A stretch of 64,000 bases of DNA from an uncultured Actinomycetes bacterium. GTDB lineage: Bacteria; Actinomycetota; Thermoleophilia; RBG-16-64-13. Below are positions 4,088 to 47,137 of the stretch, in pieces (position 1 is the first letter of the stretch; the number at the start of each line of letters is the position of its first letter). Below the pieces are notes generated by a model. That model ran no database searches and was not told where the DNA came from. It saw only the letters and a program-made list of their open reading frames with translations. Made by a program: the position numbers and the translations under genes. Where the stretch lies: assembly GCA_963841735.1 (NCBI GenBank), contig CAWJDT010000004.1, positions 320,001 to 384,000 on the forward strand, read 5' to 3'.

Positions 4088-5969
4088 ACGCGTATACCTC
4101 CCTCGCCACCTTGCCGGGAAGGCCGGGAACTCCCTCGACTTCCTCTCTGCTGGCCTGCAGGAAGCGCTCGGGCGACCCAAAATGTTGCAGAATCGCCTTC
4201 TTGCGCTTCTCTCCCACCCCCGGCAGTTGGTTAAGCAGCGACCCCGTGGTCTGCGCCGACCGCCTGCTCCGGTGAAAACCCAGCGCAAACCGATGGGCCT
4301 CGTCCCGCACCCTGCGCAATAGCAGAACCGCCGCATCGTCCGGGGCGAGATTCAGTGGGTCCGCCGACCATGGCACGAAGACCTGCTCTTCCCTCTTCGC
4401 AAGCGACACCACAGTCACCACCCCTTCCAGCCCGGCATCCCGCAGAGCCGCGGTGGCCGCTCCTAACTGTGCCTTACCCCCGTCGATCAACACTACGTCG
4501 GGGACGGCCTCGAACGACGGATCATATGGCCGGCCCGAGGATTCCGCACCGCCCGTGCCGCCCGCCACGTTCCCGCGATCCCCCGGCCCAAAACGCCGGC
4601 TCAAGGCTTCACGCATGGCGCCCACATCGTTCTGCCCCACTGTGGACCGGATGCTGAACTTGCGGTAGTCGGACTTCTTGGGCGCGCCTCCTTCGAACAC
4701 CACCATGGACGCAACGATGTTCTCTGCCCCTAGGTTGGAGATGTCGTAACCCTCGATGCGCATGGGCACCGCCTGCAGCCCCAGGCATTCCTCAAGAGCC
4801 GTGAGCGCCCCCAAACGCCTTTCTCTGCCCCGCTCCTCCCGCAAGCGGTCGTGGGCTAGGGCCAGGACGGCATTCCTATCCGCCAACTCGCGCAGACGCC
4901 GCTTGTCTCCCCGCTCCGCCTGACGAACGTCTACATTCGCCCCCCGGAGGCCCTTCAAAAACGCCTGCAGCTGGTCGGTATGCCGCACCGTTGCGGGAAC
5001 TATAAGCTCCGCAGGCACCACCGGTGCCGCGCCATAGTACTCAGCCACGAACCTCTCGAATACTTCCTGAGCATCGGCCCCCGCCACATTTATGAGAGTG
5101 ACGCTCCGCCTGTCGGCCAGCTTGCCGTCCCGAGTGACAAACACCTGCACGTTGGCTCCCCAATCGTCCATTGCTAGCCCTGTGACATCCGCGGACCCTA
5201 ATGTCTCCGACTCGATCTGTTGCCTCTCGAGCACGTGCCGCAAAGCATCCACCCGATCGCGGAGCACCGCCGCCTCTTCAAAATCTTGCCTCCCGGCCGC
5301 CTCCTGCATCGCCCGCTCCAAGCGAGCCACCACCTTGGTCTCGCGCCCGCTAAGGAACTCCACCACCTGGTCGATCACGGCCCGGTACTGTTCGGCCTCT
5401 AGTGTCCCCAGACAGGGAGCTGGGCACCTCTCGATGTGGAACTGCAGGCAGGGGGATCCCGAGTGTCGGCCGGGGCGCCTCCCCCGGCAGCTGCGCACCG
5501 GGAACACTCGACCGAGCGCATCCAGCGTTTCGCGCACCTTGGCCGCGCTGGAAAAGGGTCCGAAGTACAGATTGCCCCGGCGGTGGGGCTGCCGGGTGAA
5601 GACCACCCGAGGGAACTCCTCCTCGGCGGTCACCATGATGTAGGGGTACGATTTGTCATCGCGCAGACGGATGTTGAAAGGCGCGCGGTGCTGCTTGATG
5701 AGGTTGTGCTCCAGCAGCAGAGCCTCAACCTCGTTGCTCGTGACTATCCACTCCACCGCGGCGGCCTGCATCATCATCTCGTTGACTTTCGCGGGGAGGC
5801 GCCCGGCTTCGTCTCCAGACAACGCCGGCAGATAGCTGGCCAACCGCTTGCGCAAAGATAGAGCCTTGCCCACATAGAGCACCGCACCGGAGGCGTCCCT
5901 ATATAGGTAGACGCCCGGGAGGTCCGGGGAGTGCTTGATCTGCTGTGCGAGCTCGTCGATGGTGCCCAT
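4068..5969 (-). CDS. uvrC: excinuclease ABC subunit C
   Basis: GIY-YIG (PGVYLY..YVGKA), RIEGYDISN, LIDGGKAQL, RDEAHRFA and C-terminal HhH. Confidence 0.98.
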   Translation of the reverse strand: MGTIDELAQQIKHSPDLPGVYLYRDASGAVLYVGKALSLRKRLASYLPALSGDEAGRLPAKVNEMMMQAAAVEWIVTSNEVEALLLEHNLIKQHRAPFNIRLRDDKSYPYIMVTAEEEFPRVVFTRQPHRRGNLYFGPFSSAAKVRETLDALGRVFPVRSCRGRRPGRHSGSPCLQFHIERCPAPCLGTLEAEQYRAVIDQVVEFLSGRETKVVARLERAMQEAAGRQDFEEAAVLRDRVDALRHVLERQQIESETLGSADVTGLAMDDWGANVQVFVTRDGKLADRRSVTLINVAGADAQEVFERFVAEYYGAAPVVPAELIVPATVRHTDQLQAFLKGLRGANVDVRQAERGDKRRLRELADRNAVLALAHDRLREERGRERRLGALTALEECLGLQAVPMRIEGYDISNLGAENIVASMVVFEGGAPKKSDYRKFSIRSTVGQNDVGAMREALSRRFGPGDRGNVAGGTGGAESSGRPYDPSFEAVPDVVLIDGGKAQLGAATAALRDAGLEGVVTVVSLAKREEQVFVPWSADPLNLAPDDAAVLLLRRVRDEAHRFALGFHRSRRSAQTTGSLLNQLPGVGEKRKKAILQHFGSPERFLQASREEVEGVPGLPGKVAREVYAYVHKTG

Positions 5970-37814: not shown

Positions 37815-39065
37815 CTACCGGGAGTTCTTGCGCATCTGATCAAGAAACTCAGAGTTGGATTTCGTCTCTTTGAGCTTGCCGATCAGCAATTCGATGGCAG
37901 CATTCGGATCGAGCGCGTGCAGCACGGCCCTCAGCTTCCACACCATCGCGGCTTCGGCCGGCTCCATCAGAAGCTCTTCTTTTCGAGTGCCCGAGTTCTC
38001 GATGTCGATAGCCGGGAATATGCGCTTGTTGGCCAGTTGCCTGGTGAGCCGCACCTCCCAGTTGCCCGTGCCCTTGAACTCCTCGAAGATGACCTCGTCC
38101 ATCCGCGAACCGGTCTCCACCAGAGCGGTGGCCAGGATGGTCAGCGATCCGCCTTCTTCGATGTTGCGGGCCGCGCCGAAGAACTTCTTGGGAGGATACA
38201 GGGCCGTCGAGTCCACGCCGCCCGACAGGATGCGGCCGCTCGCCGGAGCCTGCAGGTTGTAGGCCCGGGCCATACGAGTGATGGAGTCGAGGAGCACGAC
38301 CACGTCCTTGCCCACCTCGACCAGCCGCTTGACCCGCTCCAGCACCAGCTCGGTCACCTGCACGTGGTTCTCGCCGGGCATGTCGAAGGTCGAGCTGACC
38401 ACCTCGCCGTTCACCGTGCGCTCCATGTCGGTGACCTCTTCGGGCCGCTCGTCCACCAAGAGCACCATCAGGTGCACTTCTGGGTTGTTGGCGGCGATGG
38501 CGTGAGCGATGTCCTTGAGGATGGTGGTCTTGCCCGCCTTGGGCGGCGACACGATCAGACCCCTCTGCCCCTTGCCCAGCGGGCTCATAATGTCCATCAC
38601 CCGGGCGGAGAGGTTATCCGGGGTAGTCTCAAGACGCAGCCGCTCGTCGGGGAACAGGGGCGTCAGCGAATCGAAGGTGGGGCGATGACGGGCCTGCTCG
38701 GGATCCATGTCGTTGACGGTCTGGATCTTCAGGAGCGCGTGGTACTTCTCGTTGTCGCGCGGGGTACGGACCTGACCGTTGATCTCGTCGCCTCTGCGCA
38801 ACTTGAAGCGCCGGATCTGCGACAGCGATACATAGATGTCGGAGTCCGACTGGGTGTAGCCTTGAGTGCGCAGAAAACCGTAGCCGTCGGGCAGGATGTC
38901 CAGCAGTCCCGTCCGCAGATGAAGCCCCCGGTCCTGCGACTGCTCGTTCAGGATCTTCATGATGAGATCCTGCTTGGAGTACTTGCGGAAGTTCTTGATG
39001 CCCAACTCGCCCGCGACGAGGTGCAGGTCGGACAGGAGTTTGGGCTCCAGTTCAGCTATCGCCAT
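37815..39065 (-). CDS. rho: transcription termination factor Rho
   Basis: DGYGFLR, PPKAGKT, LVDERPEEVTDM, LDSITR and EEFKGTGN. Confidence 0.99.
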   Translation of the reverse strand: MAIAELEPKLLSDLHLVAGELGIKNFRKYSKQDLIMKILNEQSQDRGLHLRTGLLDILPDGYGFLRTQGYTQSDSDIYVSLSQIRRFKLRRGDEINGQVRTPRDNEKYHALLKIQTVNDMDPEQARHRPTFDSLTPLFPDERLRLETTPDNLSARVMDIMSPLGKGQRGLIVSPPKAGKTTILKDIAHAIAANNPEVHLMVLLVDERPEEVTDMERTVNGEVVSSTFDMPGENHVQVTELVLERVKRLVEVGKDVVVLLDSITRMARAYNLQAPASGRILSGGVDSTALYPPKKFFGAARNIEEGGSLTILATALVETGSRMDEVIFEEFKGTGNWEVRLTRQLANKRIFPAIDIENSGTRKEELLMEPAEAAMVWKLRAVLHALDPNAAIELLIGKLKETKSNSEFLDQMRKNSR

Positions 39066-41156: not shown

Positions 41157-42545
41157 TCATGCCTGGCTTTCGAACCGCTCACTCGCCATCGCCGCCAACT
41201 CCTTCGTCAACTCCGCCAGTCGACCCCGGCGAGCTGGATACACCTCGACGGGAACGTTGTCCACCGCAACAATCGGAAGGCCTCGCGCCTCCGCCTCTTC
41301 GGCCACTACGTCGATAGCCGCCGCCTTTATCTCGCTCAACACTATCTCCACATTGCTCATCCGCTCCCCTGCCAAATCGGCCTTCAGGGCCATCCGATCG
41401 GCGAGGTTGGTGGATACCAGTTCCACCTTGCAGCCCCACTCCTCTTCCAAGTGCCCCCGCAGCACGCCCTTCTGCGCCTCCGGCGCAGTGGTGAACAAGG
41501 CGACCCGCCGGCCCTCCACGGCTGAGACCGGGTGGGGCCTCAGGACCACCGGCACTATCTCCATGCCGGGCCTGACCTCACTCACCGCGTCCATAACGGC
41601 CTTGACCTTCTCCCTCGTGGCCGCAGGCTCCTCCGCCATCGTCAGCGCCACCGCGTCGCTGATAAGAAGCCTATACCTCCCCAGATAGCCCGTCAGGTGC
41701 TCAAGGGGCTGACCCGCCCCTGCCACCAGAACGCACACATCACTCGCGGCCGGAGGGATAGCGGCCCCGCTTCCCTCAAGCAAGATCAGACCAGGACGCA
41801 GGCTGTTCGCCAATTCGATCCCATCCGCCACATTGGAGACGAAGGGACTACCCGCCATGCCTCCCCCGCACCGCCGGCAACCGATCGTCTTCACCCGGCT
41901 GAGAACCGCATCCTCAAAGTGATCGGAAGCCGCATGGCGCCCCTGTCTGCTCCACTTGAGCAGATCGGCAATCGTCAGCAGACCGCTTCCTCCATCGATG
42001 ACCTCCGGGACGGCCGGACCGCCACGACCCATGGCCACAATCACAACGCCGGGACTCCCGCCCCGTCCGATCACGACTTCTTGAAGGACCCGCGCCATGT
42101 AACCGCTTATCGCCGTCTTGCCCACTCGCTTGCCGGTACCTATGACCGAAAACGATGGACTTGTGCAAAGGCGCTTACAACTCGCGGGGCTGAAGTGAAA
42201 ATCGGAACCTGAGTAGCCTACGTTTCGCGCGAGGGTCTCGCTGATAAGGCGGAAACGCTGCTCGTATCCTAACACCGGTTCATCACTCAGGTCAACGACC
42301 ACCTCCGGCCGGTACTCCTCGAGCAGACGAGCAAGGCCTCGCGTCCAGTCCTCGTCGAACACAACCGGTAGACCGTAGAGCGCCCCGGCTTCGCTCTCGA
42401 GTCGCTCGCTCCTTATCTTCTCGGTGCCTCCGAGAAATAGAGCAGCGCGAAAATCAAACCGCTCTGCGGCCTGGCGCAGAGCATCCGCCACCACCTCCGG
42501 GTAGTGCTCACCATCGATCAGAGCTACCGCCGCCGGCCTAATCAC
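41157..42545 (-). CDS. cpgS: cyclic 2,3-diphosphoglycerate synthetase
   Basis: LIDGEHYP, FLGGTEK, DLSDEPVL, GTGKRVGKTA, MGRGGP, HAASDHFED, GCRRCGGG.AG and LEGSGA, recognised as cDPGS family motifs. Adjacent to 2-PGK. Confidence 0.9.
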   Translation of the reverse strand: MIRPAAVALIDGEHYPEVVADALRQAAERFDFRAALFLGGTEKIRSERLESEAGALYGLPVVFDEDWTRGLARLLEEYRPEVVVDLSDEPVLGYEQRFRLISETLARNVGYSGSDFHFSPASCKRLCTSPSFSVIGTGKRVGKTAISGYMARVLQEVVIGRGGSPGVVIVAMGRGGPAVPEVIDGGSGLLTIADLLKWSRQGRHAASDHFEDAVLSRVKTIGCRRCGGGMAGSPFVSNVADGIELANSLRPGLILLEGSGAAIPPAASDVCVLVAGAGQPLEHLTGYLGRYRLLISDAVALTMAEEPAATREKVKAVMDAVSEVRPGMEIVPVVLRPHPVSAVEGRRVALFTTAPEAQKGVLRGHLEEEWGCKVELVSTNLADRMALKADLAGERMSNVEIVLSEIKAAAIDVVAEEAEARGLPIVAVDNVPVEVYPARRGRLAELTKELAAMASERFESQA

Positions 42546-43291
42546 ATCGCGTCGAACTCCACGATGTCCTCGCCCCCGTGGAACGGATAGCGCCTGGAGA
42601 TCTTCGCATGGTCACCCTGTATCTCGATCACGTTGTAGCAGGGTTTCGTGTCGCCCCGCAGGCGTAGCGTCGCCACGGTGCCCGCATTCACAATGTACAT
42701 GTTCTCTAACCGCCAGGCATAGGGCACGTGCTTGTGCCCTGAGAGCACCAGGTGCACCCCGCACTCCACCAGGACCTCCAGAACATCGCCGGCGTCGTTC
42801 ACGATGTTGCGTTCGCGCCCAGTACCGGGGATGGGCAGCAGATGGTGGTGCAGCAGGAAGATCTTGAAAGCATCCGGATCCTGCGTGAACGCCTCTTTGA
42901 TCATGGGATAGCGGTGCCTGCCTATGCGCCCATTGTCCAGGTCGGGCTCGGTGGAGTCCACCCCAACTAGTGTGACTCCGTTCTTACGAATCACCATCTC
43001 CCTTGTAGCGAAGAGCCTCTCAAAGTGCGCGTAGCCGACGTTCCGGCTGTCGTGATTACCGGGCACCACGAGTACATCGGGACAGGTCAACCGGTCTAGG
43101 TATTCCCTGGCTTCGCGGAATTCCTGGCGATAACCCATGGTGGTGAGGTCGCCCGTCACCACCACCACATCGGGAGCGAGGTCGTTCACCTCCACCAGGG
43201 CGCGGTCGAGCAGATTGGGCACGAAGTACTGCGACCCCGTGTGAAGGTCAGAGAGGTGCGCTATCACGCACGAACGACTTGCTCTGTCCAT
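42542..43291 (-). CDS. calcineurin-like metallophosphoesterase (CpdA/Icc-like)
   Basis: SDLH, TGDLT, PGNHD, HHH and SGHKH: all five MPE motifs. GTGA overlap with cpgS. Confidence 0.92.
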   Translation of the reverse strand: MDRASRSCVIAHLSDLHTGSQYFVPNLLDRALVEVNDLAPDVVVVTGDLTTMGYRQEFREAREYLDRLTCPDVLVVPGNHDSRNVGYAHFERLFATREMVIRKNGVTLVGVDSTEPDLDNGRIGRHRYPMIKEAFTQDPDAFKIFLLHHHLLPIPGTGRERNIVNDAGDVLEVLVECGVHLVLSGHKHVPYAWRLENMYIVNAGTVATLRLRGDTKPCYNVIEIQGDHAKISRRYPFHGGEDIVEFDAM

Positions 43292-43365
43292 ATAGGCTTC
43301 CTCCGCCCGCCGGTCAGACTGGGGCTCGAGCCGACTTGGTGGAAAGGACTGCTACGATGCGCCCT

Positions 43366-44430
43366 CTACGTGGTGGCTATGAGATCCTCCACGGCCGCCA
43401 AGTCCGCGCGACAACGCTTGATGGGAGGAGACTGCTCTATGGCTGTCTGCGGATCTTTGAGTCCATGACCGGTGATTACCGCCACCAGCGTGTCTCCAAA
43501 CGGGAGTCCGGCATCCCGGTACTTCAATACCCCGGCGATACCGGCCGCGGAAGCAGGCTCGCAGAAGACGCCCTCTTTCTGAGCCAACAACCGCTGAGCT
43601 GCCAGAATCTCGTCGTCAGTAACATCACGGATGACGCCCCCCGAGTCGCGCGCCGCCGCCAAGGCTTCTTCACCCCGAGCGGGCTTACCTATGCGGATGG
43701 CCGTAGCCACTGTCTCTGGGAACTCCACGGTCTCGCCCCGCACCAGTGGGTTGGCGCCCTCAGCTTGAAAGCCCCACACCACTGGCAGCCGCGAAGACTT
43801 GCCCAACTCATGGTATTCGCGAAAACCCTTCCAGTAGGAGGTGATGTTGCCGGCGTTACCCACTGGGATAGTCAGCATGGCCGGCGCGTCGCCCAAGACG
43901 TCCACGATTTCAAACGCTCCCGTCTTCTGTCCCTCGATGCGATACGGGTTGAGTGAATTCACCAGCGTGATGGGCTGCCGTTCCGCGATCTCCTTGACGT
44001 AGTCAAGCGCCAGATCGAAGTTGCCTTCGATCGCGATGGCCACCGCCCCGTGCAGTAGCGCTTGCGACAGCTTACCCATGGCGATCTTGCCCTCGGGGAT
44101 AAGTACCACGCAACGCAGACCCGCGCGCGCCGCGTAGGCCGCAGCCGACGCGGAGGTGTTGCCTGTGGAAGCGCAGATGACCGCCGTGGCGCCATCTTCC
44201 ACCGCTTTGGTGATTGCCATGGTCATCCCCCGGTCTTTGAACGAACCGGTGGGATTCAGCCCCTCATACTTCAAGAACACTCGGCAACCCAACTCGGCGC
44301 TTAGCCACTCCGCGGGGATGAGCGGAGTGTCGCCCTCACCCAGCGTCACCGCGACCGTCTCCGCTTTCAGCGGCAGGTAGGGCCGATAGCGCTCGATCAA
44401 CCCAAAGGGCTTGCGCTCTTGGTCGGCCAC
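43366..44430 (-). CDS. thrC: threonine synthase
   Basis: [35 protein letters not shown] and TGHGLKDP. Confidence 0.97.
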
Positions 44431-44431
44431 C

Positions 44432-45709
44432 TTATAGCACCCTCAGCGTCAGGGGCTCGTTCCGGCAGCACATCAGGTTCTTCATCTGCTCGATAGCATC
44501 GAAGAAGTTCCGTTCTTTGGTGGGGTGGGTGATCAGCACCAGTTCGGCCTCGTCTCCTCTACCCTTCTGGATCATACTGGCGATCGACACGCCTAGACCA
44601 CCGAACACAGCCGCGATCTGGGCAAGAACGCCCGCGCGGTCGATGACGTTCATCTTGATGAAGAAGGCCGACTCCACCTGTTCCGAGGGAAACAGCTCTA
44701 GGCTGCGATAGCAGGAGCAGCTCTGCAGAAAGCCGACGTCCTTGGTGTTGGCGATCGACACTATGTCACTCACCACAGCGGTGGCAGTCGGCGCGCCGCC
44801 GGCGCCCGGGCCCATGAGCATGATCTCGCCTATGGCACTCCCCCGCAGGAAGACGGCGTTGTTAGAGCCGCTGATAGCAGCCAGTGGGTGGTCTTTAGGC
44901 AGTAGAGCCGGGAACACCCGCACGCTCACCTTGCCGTCGATGAGCCGCGCCGCGCCTATCAGTTTGACCACGAAACCGAAATCCTTGGCGTAACGCACAT
45001 CGTCCAAGGTGATGTCCTGGATGCCCGAGAAGGCGACATTACCCAACGTCACTCGCGAGTGGAAGGCGATAGAGGCGAGAATAGCCATTTTGGCGGCAGC
45101 GTCCGCCCCTCCCACGTCGGCGGTGGGGTCTGCCTCTGCGTAGCCCAGCTCCTGGGCTTTGGCCAGGATCTCGGGGTAGTCGCCCTCTTCGTTGTACATC
45201 CGAGTGAGGATGTAGTTGGTGGTGCCGTTGACAATGCCGTACACCGTGTGGAGCTCGGCGGCGATCATGCTCTCGCGCATCACCTTGATTATGGGGATAG
45301 CTCCGGCCACCGACGCCTCGAAGCGCAGATGCCGTCGCTGATCACGCGCCAGAGTGAACAGCGCCTCTCCTTTGGAGGCAAGCAGCTGCTTGTTGGCGGT
45401 GACCACGTTCTTGCCCTTGCGCATGGCCGCGTCGATGAAGGTGAAGGCGGCACCGGTGCCACCGATGACCTCCACGATGATCTCGATGGTCGGATCGTCC
45501 ACGATCTCCGCGAAATCATCCGTGAAGAGCCCGGCCGGTGCATCGGACGGCATTTTCCTAGCGTCGATCTCCAGGACCTTGGCCACCTGCAGATCGACCC
45601 CCGTGCCCTCCAGGATGCTGTCGTGCTCTTTCTGGATGAGCTGGTAGACGCTCGCCCCGATAGTGCCGAATCCCAAGAGTCCTATGCGTACGATCCTATC
45701 CCTATCCAT
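44432..45709 (-). CDS. hom: homoserine dehydrogenase with C-terminal ACT domain
   Basis: [39 protein letters not shown] and GPGAG. Confidence 0.97.
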
Positions 45710-45717
45710 GCCTTCCC

Positions 45718-47055
45718 CTACAGTACGGGTTGGTCTTGGTCGTGCAGCGGACGGTGCTTCGCCACCAGATCCGCGTATTGCTCCCGTTCGATGATCACCC
45801 TGGCTTGACCTTCATTCACCATAACAACGGCGGGCCGAGGGCTGCCGTTGTAGTTGGATGCCATGGCGTAACAGTAGGCGCCCGTAGTCGGCATCACCAA
45901 TATGTCTCCCGGCTCTGGCTTGGCGATGACCGCGTTGCGGATAAGGATATCGCTGCTCTCGCAGTGTTTGCCCGACACAGTCACGGCCGAATCAGCCGGA
46001 GCATCCGCCCGGTTGGCGATCATCCCCTGGTACTCCGCATCGTAAAGCATGGGCCTGATGTTGTCACTCATGCCCCCGTCAACACTGACATAGGTGCGCA
46101 CACCCGGTATGTCCTTGATGGTGCCCACCCGGTAAGCGGTAATGCCCGCCTTACCGACGATGGACCTGCCCGGTTCTATGAGCACGCGCGGCATGGCTAG
46201 CCCCATGGCGGTCATCTCTTCCCTGACGCCCTCCACCTTCACCTCGGCATACTCGCCGATGGTGGCGGGTGTGTCCGCCTCGGTGTAGCGGATGCCGAGA
46301 CCTCCGCCCACGTTCAGATACCGGCAGTCAAAGCCGAAACCCGCGTGCGCCTGCCCTATGAGCCGCACCAGGATATTGATGGCCTTACGAAACCCGTCCA
46401 GCTGGAATATCTGACTGCCGATGTGAGCGTGCAGGCCTACCAGATCCAGGTGCGGCGCTGCCATGGCCTCCCGGATGGCCTCCAGCGCCACTCCATCCCC
46501 AAGCCCGAAACCGAACTTGGAGTCAACCTGCCCTGTCTCGATATACGAGTGTGTGTGCGCTTCAACCCCAGGAGTGATACGCAGCAGAACCCCTTGCTTA
46601 CCGCCGCGGGCTCCCACCATCTCCTCCAGCAGGGCCAGCTCCTGGAAACTGTCGACCACCACGAAGCCCACACCGCCGGCAAGAGCATAATCAAGCTCCG
46701 CGCGGGTCTTGTTGTTACCGTGAAAGAAGATGCGCTCGGCGGGAAAACCGGCCGCCTTGGCCACGTAATACTCCCCGCCTGACGAGACATCGATGGAGAG
46801 GCCCTCCTCCAGAACGATCTGCTCCACGGCCACTGACGAGAAGGCCTTGCTGGCGTAGATGACCTCAAAGTCGTCGGTATGCTGCTTGAAGGCCGCCATA
46901 TACCGGCGGCACTGGTCGCGAATGGACTTCTCCTCATAGATCATGAGGGGTGTGCCGAACTCGGCCACCAGTTCAACCACGTCGCACCCGTCAACCTCCA
47001 GGTGCCCCGCTGAGTTGTGTGTAGCGGTGATGGGATAAACGAGCGTGTGAGTCAA
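45718..47055 (-). CDS. lysA: diaminopimelate decarboxylase
   Basis: YASKA, HGNNK, SKFG, HIGSQ, EPGRS, HCESSD and GAYCYAMASNYN. TTG start with GGAGG RBS. Confidence 0.97.
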   Translation of the reverse strand: MTHTLVYPITATHNSAGHLEVDGCDVVELVAEFGTPLMIYEEKSIRDQCRRYMAAFKQHTDDFEVIYASKAFSSVAVEQIVLEEGLSIDVSSGGEYYVAKAAGFPAERIFFHGNNKTRAELDYALAGGVGFVVVDSFQELALLEEMVGARGGKQGVLLRITPGVEAHTHSYIETGQVDSKFGFGLGDGVALEAIREAMAAPHLDLVGLHAHIGSQIFQLDGFRKAINILVRLIGQAHAGFGFDCRYLNVGGGLGIRYTEADTPATIGEYAEVKVEGVREEMTAMGLAMPRVLIEPGRSIVGKAGITAYRVGTIKDIPGVRTYVSVDGGMSDNIRPMLYDAEYQGMIANRADAPADSAVTVSGKHCESSDILIRNAVIAKPEPGDILVMPTTGAYCYAMASNYNGSPRPAVVMVNEGQARVIIEREQYADLVAKHRPLHDQDQPVL

Positions 47056-47137
47056 GAAAGCCTCCAAGAACGACAAACACCGGTACGTTACCACAAGCGG
47101 CTAGGGGCTGCTGTAGCTGCTAGAATTCACCTTCACG

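Follow-up and report, generated by a model that had tools for sequence, protein, structure and literature searches.

Which enzyme breaks down the bisphosphoglycerates made by the cyclic 2,3-diphosphoglycerate (cDPG) pathway is the question raised by a gene block found in a stretch of 64,000 nt, hereafter the window, from an uncultured Actinomycetes bacterium (assembly GCA_963841735.1, contig CAWJDT010000004.1, positions 320,001–384,000 of the forward strand; genome of 2.82 Mb, 89.7% complete). In this block, a gene for a metallophosphoesterase (MPE) precedes cpgS, for cDPG synthetase, 2pgk, for 2-phosphoglycerate kinase (2PGK), and glpX, for a class II fructose-1,6-bisphosphatase (FBPase). Hydrolysis of cDPG to 2,3-diphosphoglycerate (2,3-DPG) is a measured activity of Methanothermobacter, present both in soluble extracts and as a membrane-bound form that K+ and phosphate (Pi) inhibit; the passages of PMC1224877 that describe it, and that cite Sastry et al. 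(1992) and van Alebeek et al. (1994) for the cDPG hydrolase activity of Methanothermobacter thermautotrophicus, leave the gene unnamed. The initial annotation of the locus, made from its sequence, held that no gene had been assigned to this activity. In agreement, our literature search found no paper naming a gene for the breakdown of cDPG or 2,3-DPG in prokaryotes, and the word hydrolase occurs once, in the reference list, in passages of the 2023 structure paper and is absent from those of the 2025 synthesis paper.

From its gene context, MPE appears to be the best candidate for a bisphosphoglycerate-degrading enzyme, because it heads the cDPG operon and follows 2PGK even where cpgS is missing. 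We assign a probability of roughly 0.45 to MPE being the enzyme that degrades the bisphosphoglycerate pool, most likely with 2,3-DPG as its substrate and perhaps with opening of cDPG in addition. In the proposed scheme, 2PGK would convert 2-phosphoglycerate to 2,3-DPG, cDPG synthetase would turn 2,3-DPG into cDPG, a cyclic pyrophosphate, and MPE would return the pool to phosphoglycerate and phosphate. Its most likely substrate would be 2,3-DPG, made by the enzyme whose gene is its most constant partner, and MPE could also open the cDPG ring first. Keeping the genes for synthesis and breakdown in one operon would then provide a controllable reserve of phosphate, carbon, and energy, in the manner of ppk-ppx. 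Since breakdown of cDPG has been an activity without a gene from the early 1990s, a candidate of 249 amino acids (aa) that is easily expressed makes the question directly testable.

The MPE gene and its product

The annotation had described a 249-aa calcineurin-like phosphoesterase with all metal motifs and a distinctive segment, whose gene overlaps the start of cpgS at a GTGA and heads an MPE-cpgS-2pgk-glpX block. Each of these details was borne out by the open reading frame (ORF), the Pfam profiles and the sequence itself (Table 1), and the identity of cpgS by its match to the solved enzyme. The MPE start agrees with that of most homologues from the 64 related loci with a delimitable MPE frame, and its product is 55–92% identical across 40 related loci; the ORF is not a chance frame. 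In these 40 loci, the median identity was 83.5% for MPE, 64.0% for cpgS and 64.4% for 2PGK, with MPE above both partners in 40 of 40. A fusion of MPE with cpgS, suggested by open frames of 700–1060 aa, was discarded, as the four inspected were separate frames or had a stop between the genes.

The deduced product of cpgS aligned through residues 7–459 to residues 8–457 of the Methanothermus fervidus enzyme (PDB 8ORK/8ORU), including the P-loop GTGKR[VI]GKTA, and through the same residues to PDB 9SXB (E 5.9e-96); no Pfam or NCBIfam model matched it in the profile search. Judging from these alignments, it is a true cDPG synthetase. The 2PGK product matched positions 10–298 of the 306 in NF003259 (E 1.2e-84), with 284.3 bits for a curated cut-off of 343. 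Its longest ORF overlaps the end of cpgS by 26 nt, and glpX overlaps the end of 2pgk by 14 nt.

By profile, motifs and fold alike, MPE belongs to the calcineurin-like metallophosphoesterase superfamily. It scored 63.7 bits against PF00149 (Metallophos; cut-off 21.5, E 4e-17), matched PF12850 (E 1.9e-13) and contains the motifs D15-x-H17, G47-D48, G78-N79-H80-D81, H148-H150, and G185-H186-x-H188. The metal ligands D15, H17, D48, N79, H80, H149, H186, and H188 are all present and are invariant in 50 aligned relatives. Likewise, the segment HHHLLPIPGTGRERN is invariant or nearly so in these 50 family members and in all the clades compared; the GRERN loop, nine residues after the metal ligand His149 and in the position where GpdQ has GNAQMD, probably lines the rim of the active site. 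The protein contains no hydrophobic segment (maximum 19-residue Kyte-Doolittle mean of 1.31), and its AlphaFold2 model is globular with the MPE fold (pLDDT 93.5, pTM 0.92). At E ≤ 0.001, this model matched 169 PDB entries; the 49 among the matches listed are all MPE-fold proteins, and the nearest folds are Rv0805 and GpdQ, with around 20% identity. An atlas search with MPE returned nothing beyond clusters of its own kind. We envisage a soluble two-metal enzyme in which a metal-bridged hydroxide would attack phosphorus, as in GpdQ and Rv0805, and in which the invariant basic residues R83, R125, R159, R161, K187, R210, and R212 would hold a multiply charged substrate.

This structural kinship, and the names Icc protein or 3',5'-cyclic-AMP phosphodiesterase that homologues carry from automatic annotation, could indicate that MPE is a cyclic-nucleotide phosphodiesterase of the CpdA/Icc type with a signalling role controlling the operon, because its fold and motif spacing resemble those of the Rv0805/CpdA class. 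The phosphodiesterase name is not earned, however, because MPE scores far below the NCBI cut-offs for CpdA (NF008359, 42 bits for a cut-off of 225) and SpdA (NF050112, 39.6 bits for a cut-off of 400). Additionally, the identity to both Rv0805 and GpdQ is low, the GRERN loop replaces the GpdQ loop, and the distribution of MPE tracks a metabolic pathway rather than cyclase genes, which makes a cyclic-nucleotide phosphodiesterase of this type very improbable.

Co-inheritance with cpgS and 2PGK

The distribution of the three genes was determined in a sample of 401 genomes of the phylum, counting cpgS at E ≤ 1e-20, MPE at E ≤ 1e-10, and 2PGK at E ≤ 1e-15. Both cpgS and 2PGK were found in 228 genomes and MPE in 233, of which six were weak matches (E 1e-10 to 1e-14) and 227, at E ≤ 2.5e-47, correspond to the orthologue. 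Once the presence lists were matched by hand and cross-checked against the tallies per family, cpgS and MPE occurred together in 224 genomes, cpgS only in four (G019, G195, G281, and G391), MPE only in three (G117, G270, and G315), and neither in 170, while the complete set of cpgS, MPE, and 2PGK was present in 220. Excluding 14 genomes flagged as unpublished, these numbers were 211 with both, three with cpgS only, three with MPE only, and 170 with neither (n = 387). Whole families were all-or-none (f9, 26/26; f14, 0/21; f19, 31/31), also within the class of the window (f1, 3/3; f2, 0/7; f3, 0/8; f4, 2/3 for cpgS and 3/3 for MPE; f5, 0/6; f7, 2/2). The genomes of the phylum are kin and, therefore, these counts represent joint gain and loss, and not 224 independent events. 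The source genome has a single MPE orthologue, the next match to the superfamily having E 3.5e-4. Several of the sampled genomes, from families f19, f30, f32, and f16, have 2–5 MPE matches each. Chloroflexota, with MPE in 0/151 genomes and cpgS in 1/151 (the seed genome), are consistent with this pattern but uninformative.

Gene order was compared in the 80 best cpgS loci from a scan of genome contigs. An MPE gene was in the flank of 67 of them, directly upstream of cpgS and on the same strand in 58, and downstream in nine loci from Thermococci. The flank was too short in four of the 13 loci without MPE; of the other nine, all but L052 were checked at the genome level, with MPE elsewhere in the genome for four (L051, L066, L073, and L077) and no MPE found in the genomes of L025, L050, L055, and L061. 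The MPE-cpgS-2pgk order of 58 of the 80 loci, together with the translational coupling of MPE to cpgS itself and not to 2pgk, argues for a dedicated cDPG hydrolase, that is, an enzyme that opens cDPG to 2,3-DPG and for which 2,3-DPG is not a substrate. The closest characterised relatives of MPE are phosphodiesterases, and each phosphorus of cDPG is diester-like, which also speaks for such an enzyme; pyrophosphate-cleaving MPE enzymes exist as well, as are ApaH, LpxH, and ADPRibase-Mn. A dedicated hydrolase would, additionally, account for the known conversion of cDPG to 2,3-DPG that has no gene in the passages of PMC1224877.

The association was also seen when loci were selected by MPE. We retrieved 80 metagenome loci, 79 of them usable, and split them at 54% identity to the MPE from the window. 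In the class with at least 54% identity (57 loci), cpgS is directly downstream of MPE in 43; since 11 loci have less than 300 bp of downstream sequence and three lack cpgS, the gene is present in 43 of the 46 testable loci. The three loci lacking cpgS (L098, L100, and L103) make up a subclade of paralogues that falls within the cpgS-linked clade. In this subclade (L098:1098–3673, L100:1223–3799, L103:2009–3769), a PGA_cap (CapA-like) gene precedes MPE in L098 and L100, and a SAM hydroxide adenosyltransferase gene lies downstream of MPE on the other strand in L100 and L103. The class with less than 54% identity comprises 22 loci, with cpgS nearby in none of them.

Archaea were represented by all 133 genomes of the Thermococci phylum, in which cpgS was found in 97, MPE in 110 (one of them weak), and 2PGK in 106. 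Here cpgS and MPE coincide in 96 genomes, with MPE only in 13 and cpgS only in one, where cpgS is at a contig end; 2PGK and MPE coincide in 105, with MPE only in four, 2PGK only in one, and neither in 23. Twelve of the 13 genomes with MPE and no cpgS have 2PGK, which is within approximately 1.5 kb of MPE in 11 of them. The more persistent partner of MPE is, thus, 2PGK and not cpgS. This pattern agrees with the passages of Anderson et al. (2009, PMC2686161) reporting that every Class I methanogen, mesophiles included, has 2PGK and that cDPG synthetase is limited to a subset. The link of MPE to 2PGK in the absence of cpgS suggests a function for 2PGK in the mesophilic methanogens noted there, in which its presence was unexplained.

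These 13 cpgS-free genomes, out of 109 positive for MPE, weigh against a dedicated cDPG hydrolase, inasmuch as 11 keep 2pgk beside MPE and as they contain only a distant relative of cpgS, cobW/HypB-like and not linked to MPE (E ~1e-8, 28% identity over 165 residues). The MPE family is also common in Methanobrevibacter, which belongs to a Class I order, whereas cDPG synthetase is restricted to a Class I subset in the passages available from the literature, and its signature residues are alike in cpgS-linked and other clades. We consider, in consequence, that a strict cDPG hydrolase is unlikely. The cobW/HypB-like relative may have a function related to that of cpgS; in L173:1228–2631 and L174:1377–2726 it is a protein of around 450–467 aa with a cobW/HypB/UreG-type domain that weakly resembles the C-terminal half of cDPG synthetase, and in L173 its gene is preceded by a ferredoxin-like gene. 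In the cpgS-free archaeon of locus L172 (L172:606–4662), a head-to-tail series starts with apgM (cofactor-independent phosphoglycerate mutase) and 2pgk and continues with an ORF of 122 aa, for which Pfam gave no match, and a tandem MPE gene; another MPE-fold gene is convergent just downstream (4659–5606).

The co-occurrence of GRERN-type MPE genes with cpgS and 2pgk across archaea and bacteria, which the initial annotation put up for testing, was borne out in part. It held for the 401 bacterial genomes, for the loci selected by MPE and for the proximity of MPE to cpgS-2pgk in Thermococci, and it failed for the 13 genomes of the Thermococci phylum with MPE and no cpgS and for family members in pst operons, also without cpgS. 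As for the two activities it proposed, opening of cDPG or dephosphorylation of 2,3-DPG, the adjacency of 2PGK in 11 of the 13 cpgS-free genomes speaks for the second no less than for the first. With 2PGK as the constant partner and the same signature residues throughout the family, a 2,3-DPG hydrolase would be the simplest reading, and opening of cDPG is kept as a possible activity by the diesterase kinship of the fold and by the direct coupling to cpgS in bacteria.

MPE from Thermococci is a tandem protein (diMPE) of about 505 aa, with a CBS-pair gene ahead. The order is cpgS-2pgk-CBS-diMPE with 4-nt overlaps in L065, and CBS-diMPE is convergent to cpgS-2pgk in other loci; in some genomes, diMPE lies 5–60 kb or more from cpgS. 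Its N-terminal domain is 39–43% identical to MPE from the window and contains HHHLVPLPDTGRERN and all the ligands, while the second domain has lost ligands by the changes D15E, H17N, N79H, H80N, and H188G (L065:8665–10188 and other Thermococci loci). R125 is kept in the second domain, and the first has Gly in that position. From its sequence, diMPE resembles a heterodimer made permanent by fusion, with a single active site, and this tandem form with one degenerate domain suggests that the bacterial enzyme could work as a dimer. Other archaeal members include a protein from Methanobrevibacter sp. DSM 116169 (41% identity, all motifs), whose 120 closest relatives, where named, are from Methanobrevibacter or Methanobacteriaceae. 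Named holders among 30 cluster representatives and the relatives of P0270 were Methanobrevibacter, Methanomicrobia metagenome-assembled genomes, Methanofastidiosa, Asgard, Korarchaeota, and Caldarchaeum; Methanothermobacter, Methanothermus, and Methanopyrus were not among these names, nor among the 80 best cpgS loci, listings that are no evidence of absence.

Relatives in phosphate operons and the proposed role of MPE

Six loci from the class with less than 54% identity (five among the tree rows counted) plus one genome locus sit in phosphate-uptake operons. The gene order is pstC-pstB-phoU-MPE in L091 (2823–6747), pstS-pstC-MPE in L093 (1951–4651), and phoU-like-MPE-pstS in L084:5315–8064, from genome G407; the other pst-linked loci are L094, L096, L097, and L139. 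cpgS was not seen on the contigs of L091, L093, and L084. Besides its pst-linked MPE gene, G407 has a second, tandem copy that adjoins 2pgk. In L089:1514–3237, an archaeal contig with a TBP gene nearby, an MPE relative overlaps the end of the gene for RtcA (RNA 3'-terminal phosphate cyclase) by 4 nt, so that a cyclic-phosphate substrate may be suspected in that lineage. No recurrent neighbours were found for a further group of relatives, the soil clade.

These groups were separated in an IQ-TREE tree of 47 rows, which resolved clades of Thermococci N-terminal domains plus Methanobrevibacter (support 95), of pst-linked members (97), and of soil members (98). The actinobacterial cpgS-linked clade, with the paralogues nested inside, had a support of 86, and the branching order of the bacterial clades was not resolved. 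Residues D15, H17, D48, N79, H80, R83, N84, D112, S113, P116, D117, and R125 are kept in the relatives without cpgS, as are H148–150, T157, G158, R159, E160, R161, N162, D166, G168, D169, H186, and H188; K187 is also kept, save in the soil clade, where it is R. The cpgS-linked clades are set apart from the pst clade by E34, N202, R212, and Y219 only; of these four positions, N202 alone distinguishes them from the soil clade as well. The GRERN motif is consequently not specific to cpgS partners, because the signature residues are equally invariant in relatives without cpgS nearby, including those associated with pstSCAB-phoU.

Relatives with identical motifs inside pst/phoU operons (L091, L093, L094, L096, L097, L139, and G407) raise the alternative that MPE is a general phosphate-starvation phosphoesterase, acting on some common phosphate compound of the cytoplasm, such as a phosphodiester, polyphosphate or a cyclic phosphate, and placed beside cpgS-2pgk through a common phosphate response. 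The overlap with the RNA 3'-phosphate cyclase gene in L089, the PhoU/TrkA-C gene that adjoins the Thermococci cluster, and the mere four positions that divide the cpgS-linked from the pst clade can be counted in its favour. A generally useful phosphatase, however, should often outlive the loss of the pathway, and actinobacterial MPE was lost along with cpgS and 2PGK, as seen from the 170 genomes with neither gene and the three with MPE alone. The single copy of the source genome sits in the cpgS operon, the pst-linked members are a separate clade, and, given 2pgk beside the second, tandem copy of G407, the reserve of that genome may likewise be 2,3-DPG. A general function is, for these reasons, doubtful. 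The pst-operon relatives, together with the inhibition of the methanogen hydrolase by phosphate described in passages of PMC1224877, suggest mobilisation of phosphate from a reserve.

Several observations weigh against bisphosphoglycerate breakdown by MPE. The proposed substrate, as well as the direction of the reaction and its physiological role, derive from gene context, and adjacency within Actinomycetota mostly reflects a single inherited arrangement, set into a conserved hom-thrC...rho array, in genomes that are not independent. G019 (95% complete) has adjoining cpgS and 2pgk, and no MPE orthologue was found in it, G117 (98% complete) has MPE only, G091 and G177 have 2PGK only, and MPE was not found in the cpgS-bearing genomes of Acetothermia, Anaerolineae, Gaiellales (L025), and L055. 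In one actinobacterial group, cpgS-2pgk lies between thrC and rho without MPE, which is elsewhere, beside gpsA. The nearest characterised relatives, GpdQ and Rv0805, are diesterases, a chemistry better matched to the diester-like phosphorus of cDPG than to the monoesters of 2,3-DPG, and the cDPG hydrolase of van Alebeek et al. (1994) is membrane-bound according to passages of PMC1224877, whereas MPE lacks a hydrophobic segment. Co-transcription of a synthetase with a hydrolase would lead to futile cycling if the hydrolase were not regulated. Finally, the family may act on a more general substrate, because pst-linked and soil relatives share every signature residue.

As to the MPE genes located beside gpsA, these are divergent from it in L169:4999–6895 and L170:4964–7565, with an adjoining CofC-like gene in L169 and a plsC-type acyltransferase gene in L170.

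A broader proposal, which we put forward tentatively, is that 2PGK and MPE could be an old and widespread two-gene core for making and removing a 2,3-DPG reserve of phosphate, carbon, and energy, present in Actinomycetota, Thermococci, Methanobrevibacter, Asgard archaea, and others. In this proposal, cpgS would be an accessory gene through which the reserve is kept in a stable cyclic form, the copies in pst operons would draw on it in phosphate hunger, and bisphosphoglycerate storage would be common in mesophilic bacteria and not a curiosity of hot-spring methanogens. Recent papers, as in the abstract of PMC10690619, describe cDPG as exclusive to hyperthermophilic methanogens, whereas genes of its pathway are present in 228 of the 401 genomes of a bacterial phylum examined here. 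If confirmed, breakdown of the pool by MPE would be relevant to biotechnology, in which a host that makes cDPG for use as a protein stabiliser ought to be free of MPE, and to phosphate storage in abundant uncultured Actinomycetota from soil and freshwater.

The locus and comparison with known systems

The block is bounded by thrC and rho (Table 1), and the hom-thrC-...-rho order is kept across related loci. The last gene of the block, glpX, had been included in a full cycle of synthesis and turnover, a role that we do not favour: it is the sole GlpX match in the source genome (89.7% complete), in which no class I FBPase was found either, and as the only FBPase found there it is more likely a housekeeping gluconeogenic enzyme than part of a dedicated cycle. 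Its score is 220 bits for an NCBI glpX cut-off of 259, and its median identity of 55% is the lowest in the block. A terminator-like hairpin (42460–42483) and a promoter-like site (42266–42295) occur on the coding strand within the 5' part of cpgS; the promoter and terminator scan of the window gave nothing above the expectation from shuffled sequences, and both are probably due to chance.

Table 1. Coordinates in the window of the MPE operon and its flanking genes.
Feature	Position	Strand	Evidence and remarks
lysA	45718–47094	minus	family profiles
hom	44432–45709	minus	family profiles
thrC	43366–44430	minus	TIGR00260 E 6.9e-93; upstream boundary, 74 nt ahead of MPE start
Shine-Dalgarno GGAGGA	43299–43304	minus	read from sequence; 7 nt ahead of MPE ATG
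MPE, GRERN-type metallophosphoesterase, 249 aa, soluble	42542–43291	minus	ORF, ATG start; PF00149 E 4e-17
Codons for HHHLLPIPGTGRERN, MPE residues 148–162	42806–42850	minus	metal ligand His149, then GRERN loop
GTGA, 4-nt overlap of MPE stop TGA (end GCG ATG TGA) and cpgS start GTG	42542–42545	minus	sequence
cpgS, cDPG synthetase, 462 aa	41157–42545	minus	PDB 8ORK/8ORU E 1.8e-108
2pgk, 2PGK, ATP-cone plus P-loop kinase, 336 aa	40172–41182	minus	NF003259, PF03477; longest ORF
glpX, class II FBPase, 343 aa	39154–40185	minus	PF03320 E 1e-96
rho	37815–39065	minus	TIGR00767 E 4.4e-199; downstream boundary of block

Among solved structures, the best sequence match to MPE is GpdQ from Enterobacter aerogenes (PDB 2DXL, 2ZO9, and 3D03), with E 8.7e-8 from the single sequence and 1.7e-16 from the family profile (Foldseek E 1.1e-14, TM 0.71). 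Both proteins have the MPE fold and the same seven metal-ligand positions in common; GpdQ differs in its approximately 18% identity, in having GNAQMD in place of GRERN, in lacking a link to cpgS or 2pgk, and in its phosphodiester substrates, although it is promiscuous towards mono- and triesters. The top structural match is the Rv0805/CpdA class III (PDB 3IB7 and 2HY1; Foldseek E 6.4e-15, TM 0.79), which shares with MPE the motif order D-x-H, GD, GNHD, H, and GH-x-H with similar spacing, following the rule given in passages of PMC4320098. The first spacer, from H17 to G47, is nevertheless of 29 residues in MPE versus 37–38 in that rule, and the gene context of MPE differs in being metabolic. 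PdeM, described in passages of the same paper, was considered and rejected as a relative, because it belongs to another MPE group (TIGR04123).

The cDPG hydrolase of M. thermautotrophicus would act on the same pathway and pool as MPE, and its inhibition by phosphate, as given in passages of PMC1224877, fits the logic of a phosphate reserve. That logic is similar to the one found in polyphosphate metabolism genes, where MPE and its operon resemble ppk-ppx in the co-transcription of a synthetase and a hydrolase; the proteins are unrelated, and the likeness is one of analogy only. In ppk-ppx operons, the genes for synthesis and breakdown of the reserve stand together. A parallel in gene organisation is that of the CBS-pair and tandem MPE genes from Thermococci, which in L065 are in one operon with cpgS-2pgk, like MPE in the window, and which, unlike it, encode two MPE domains.

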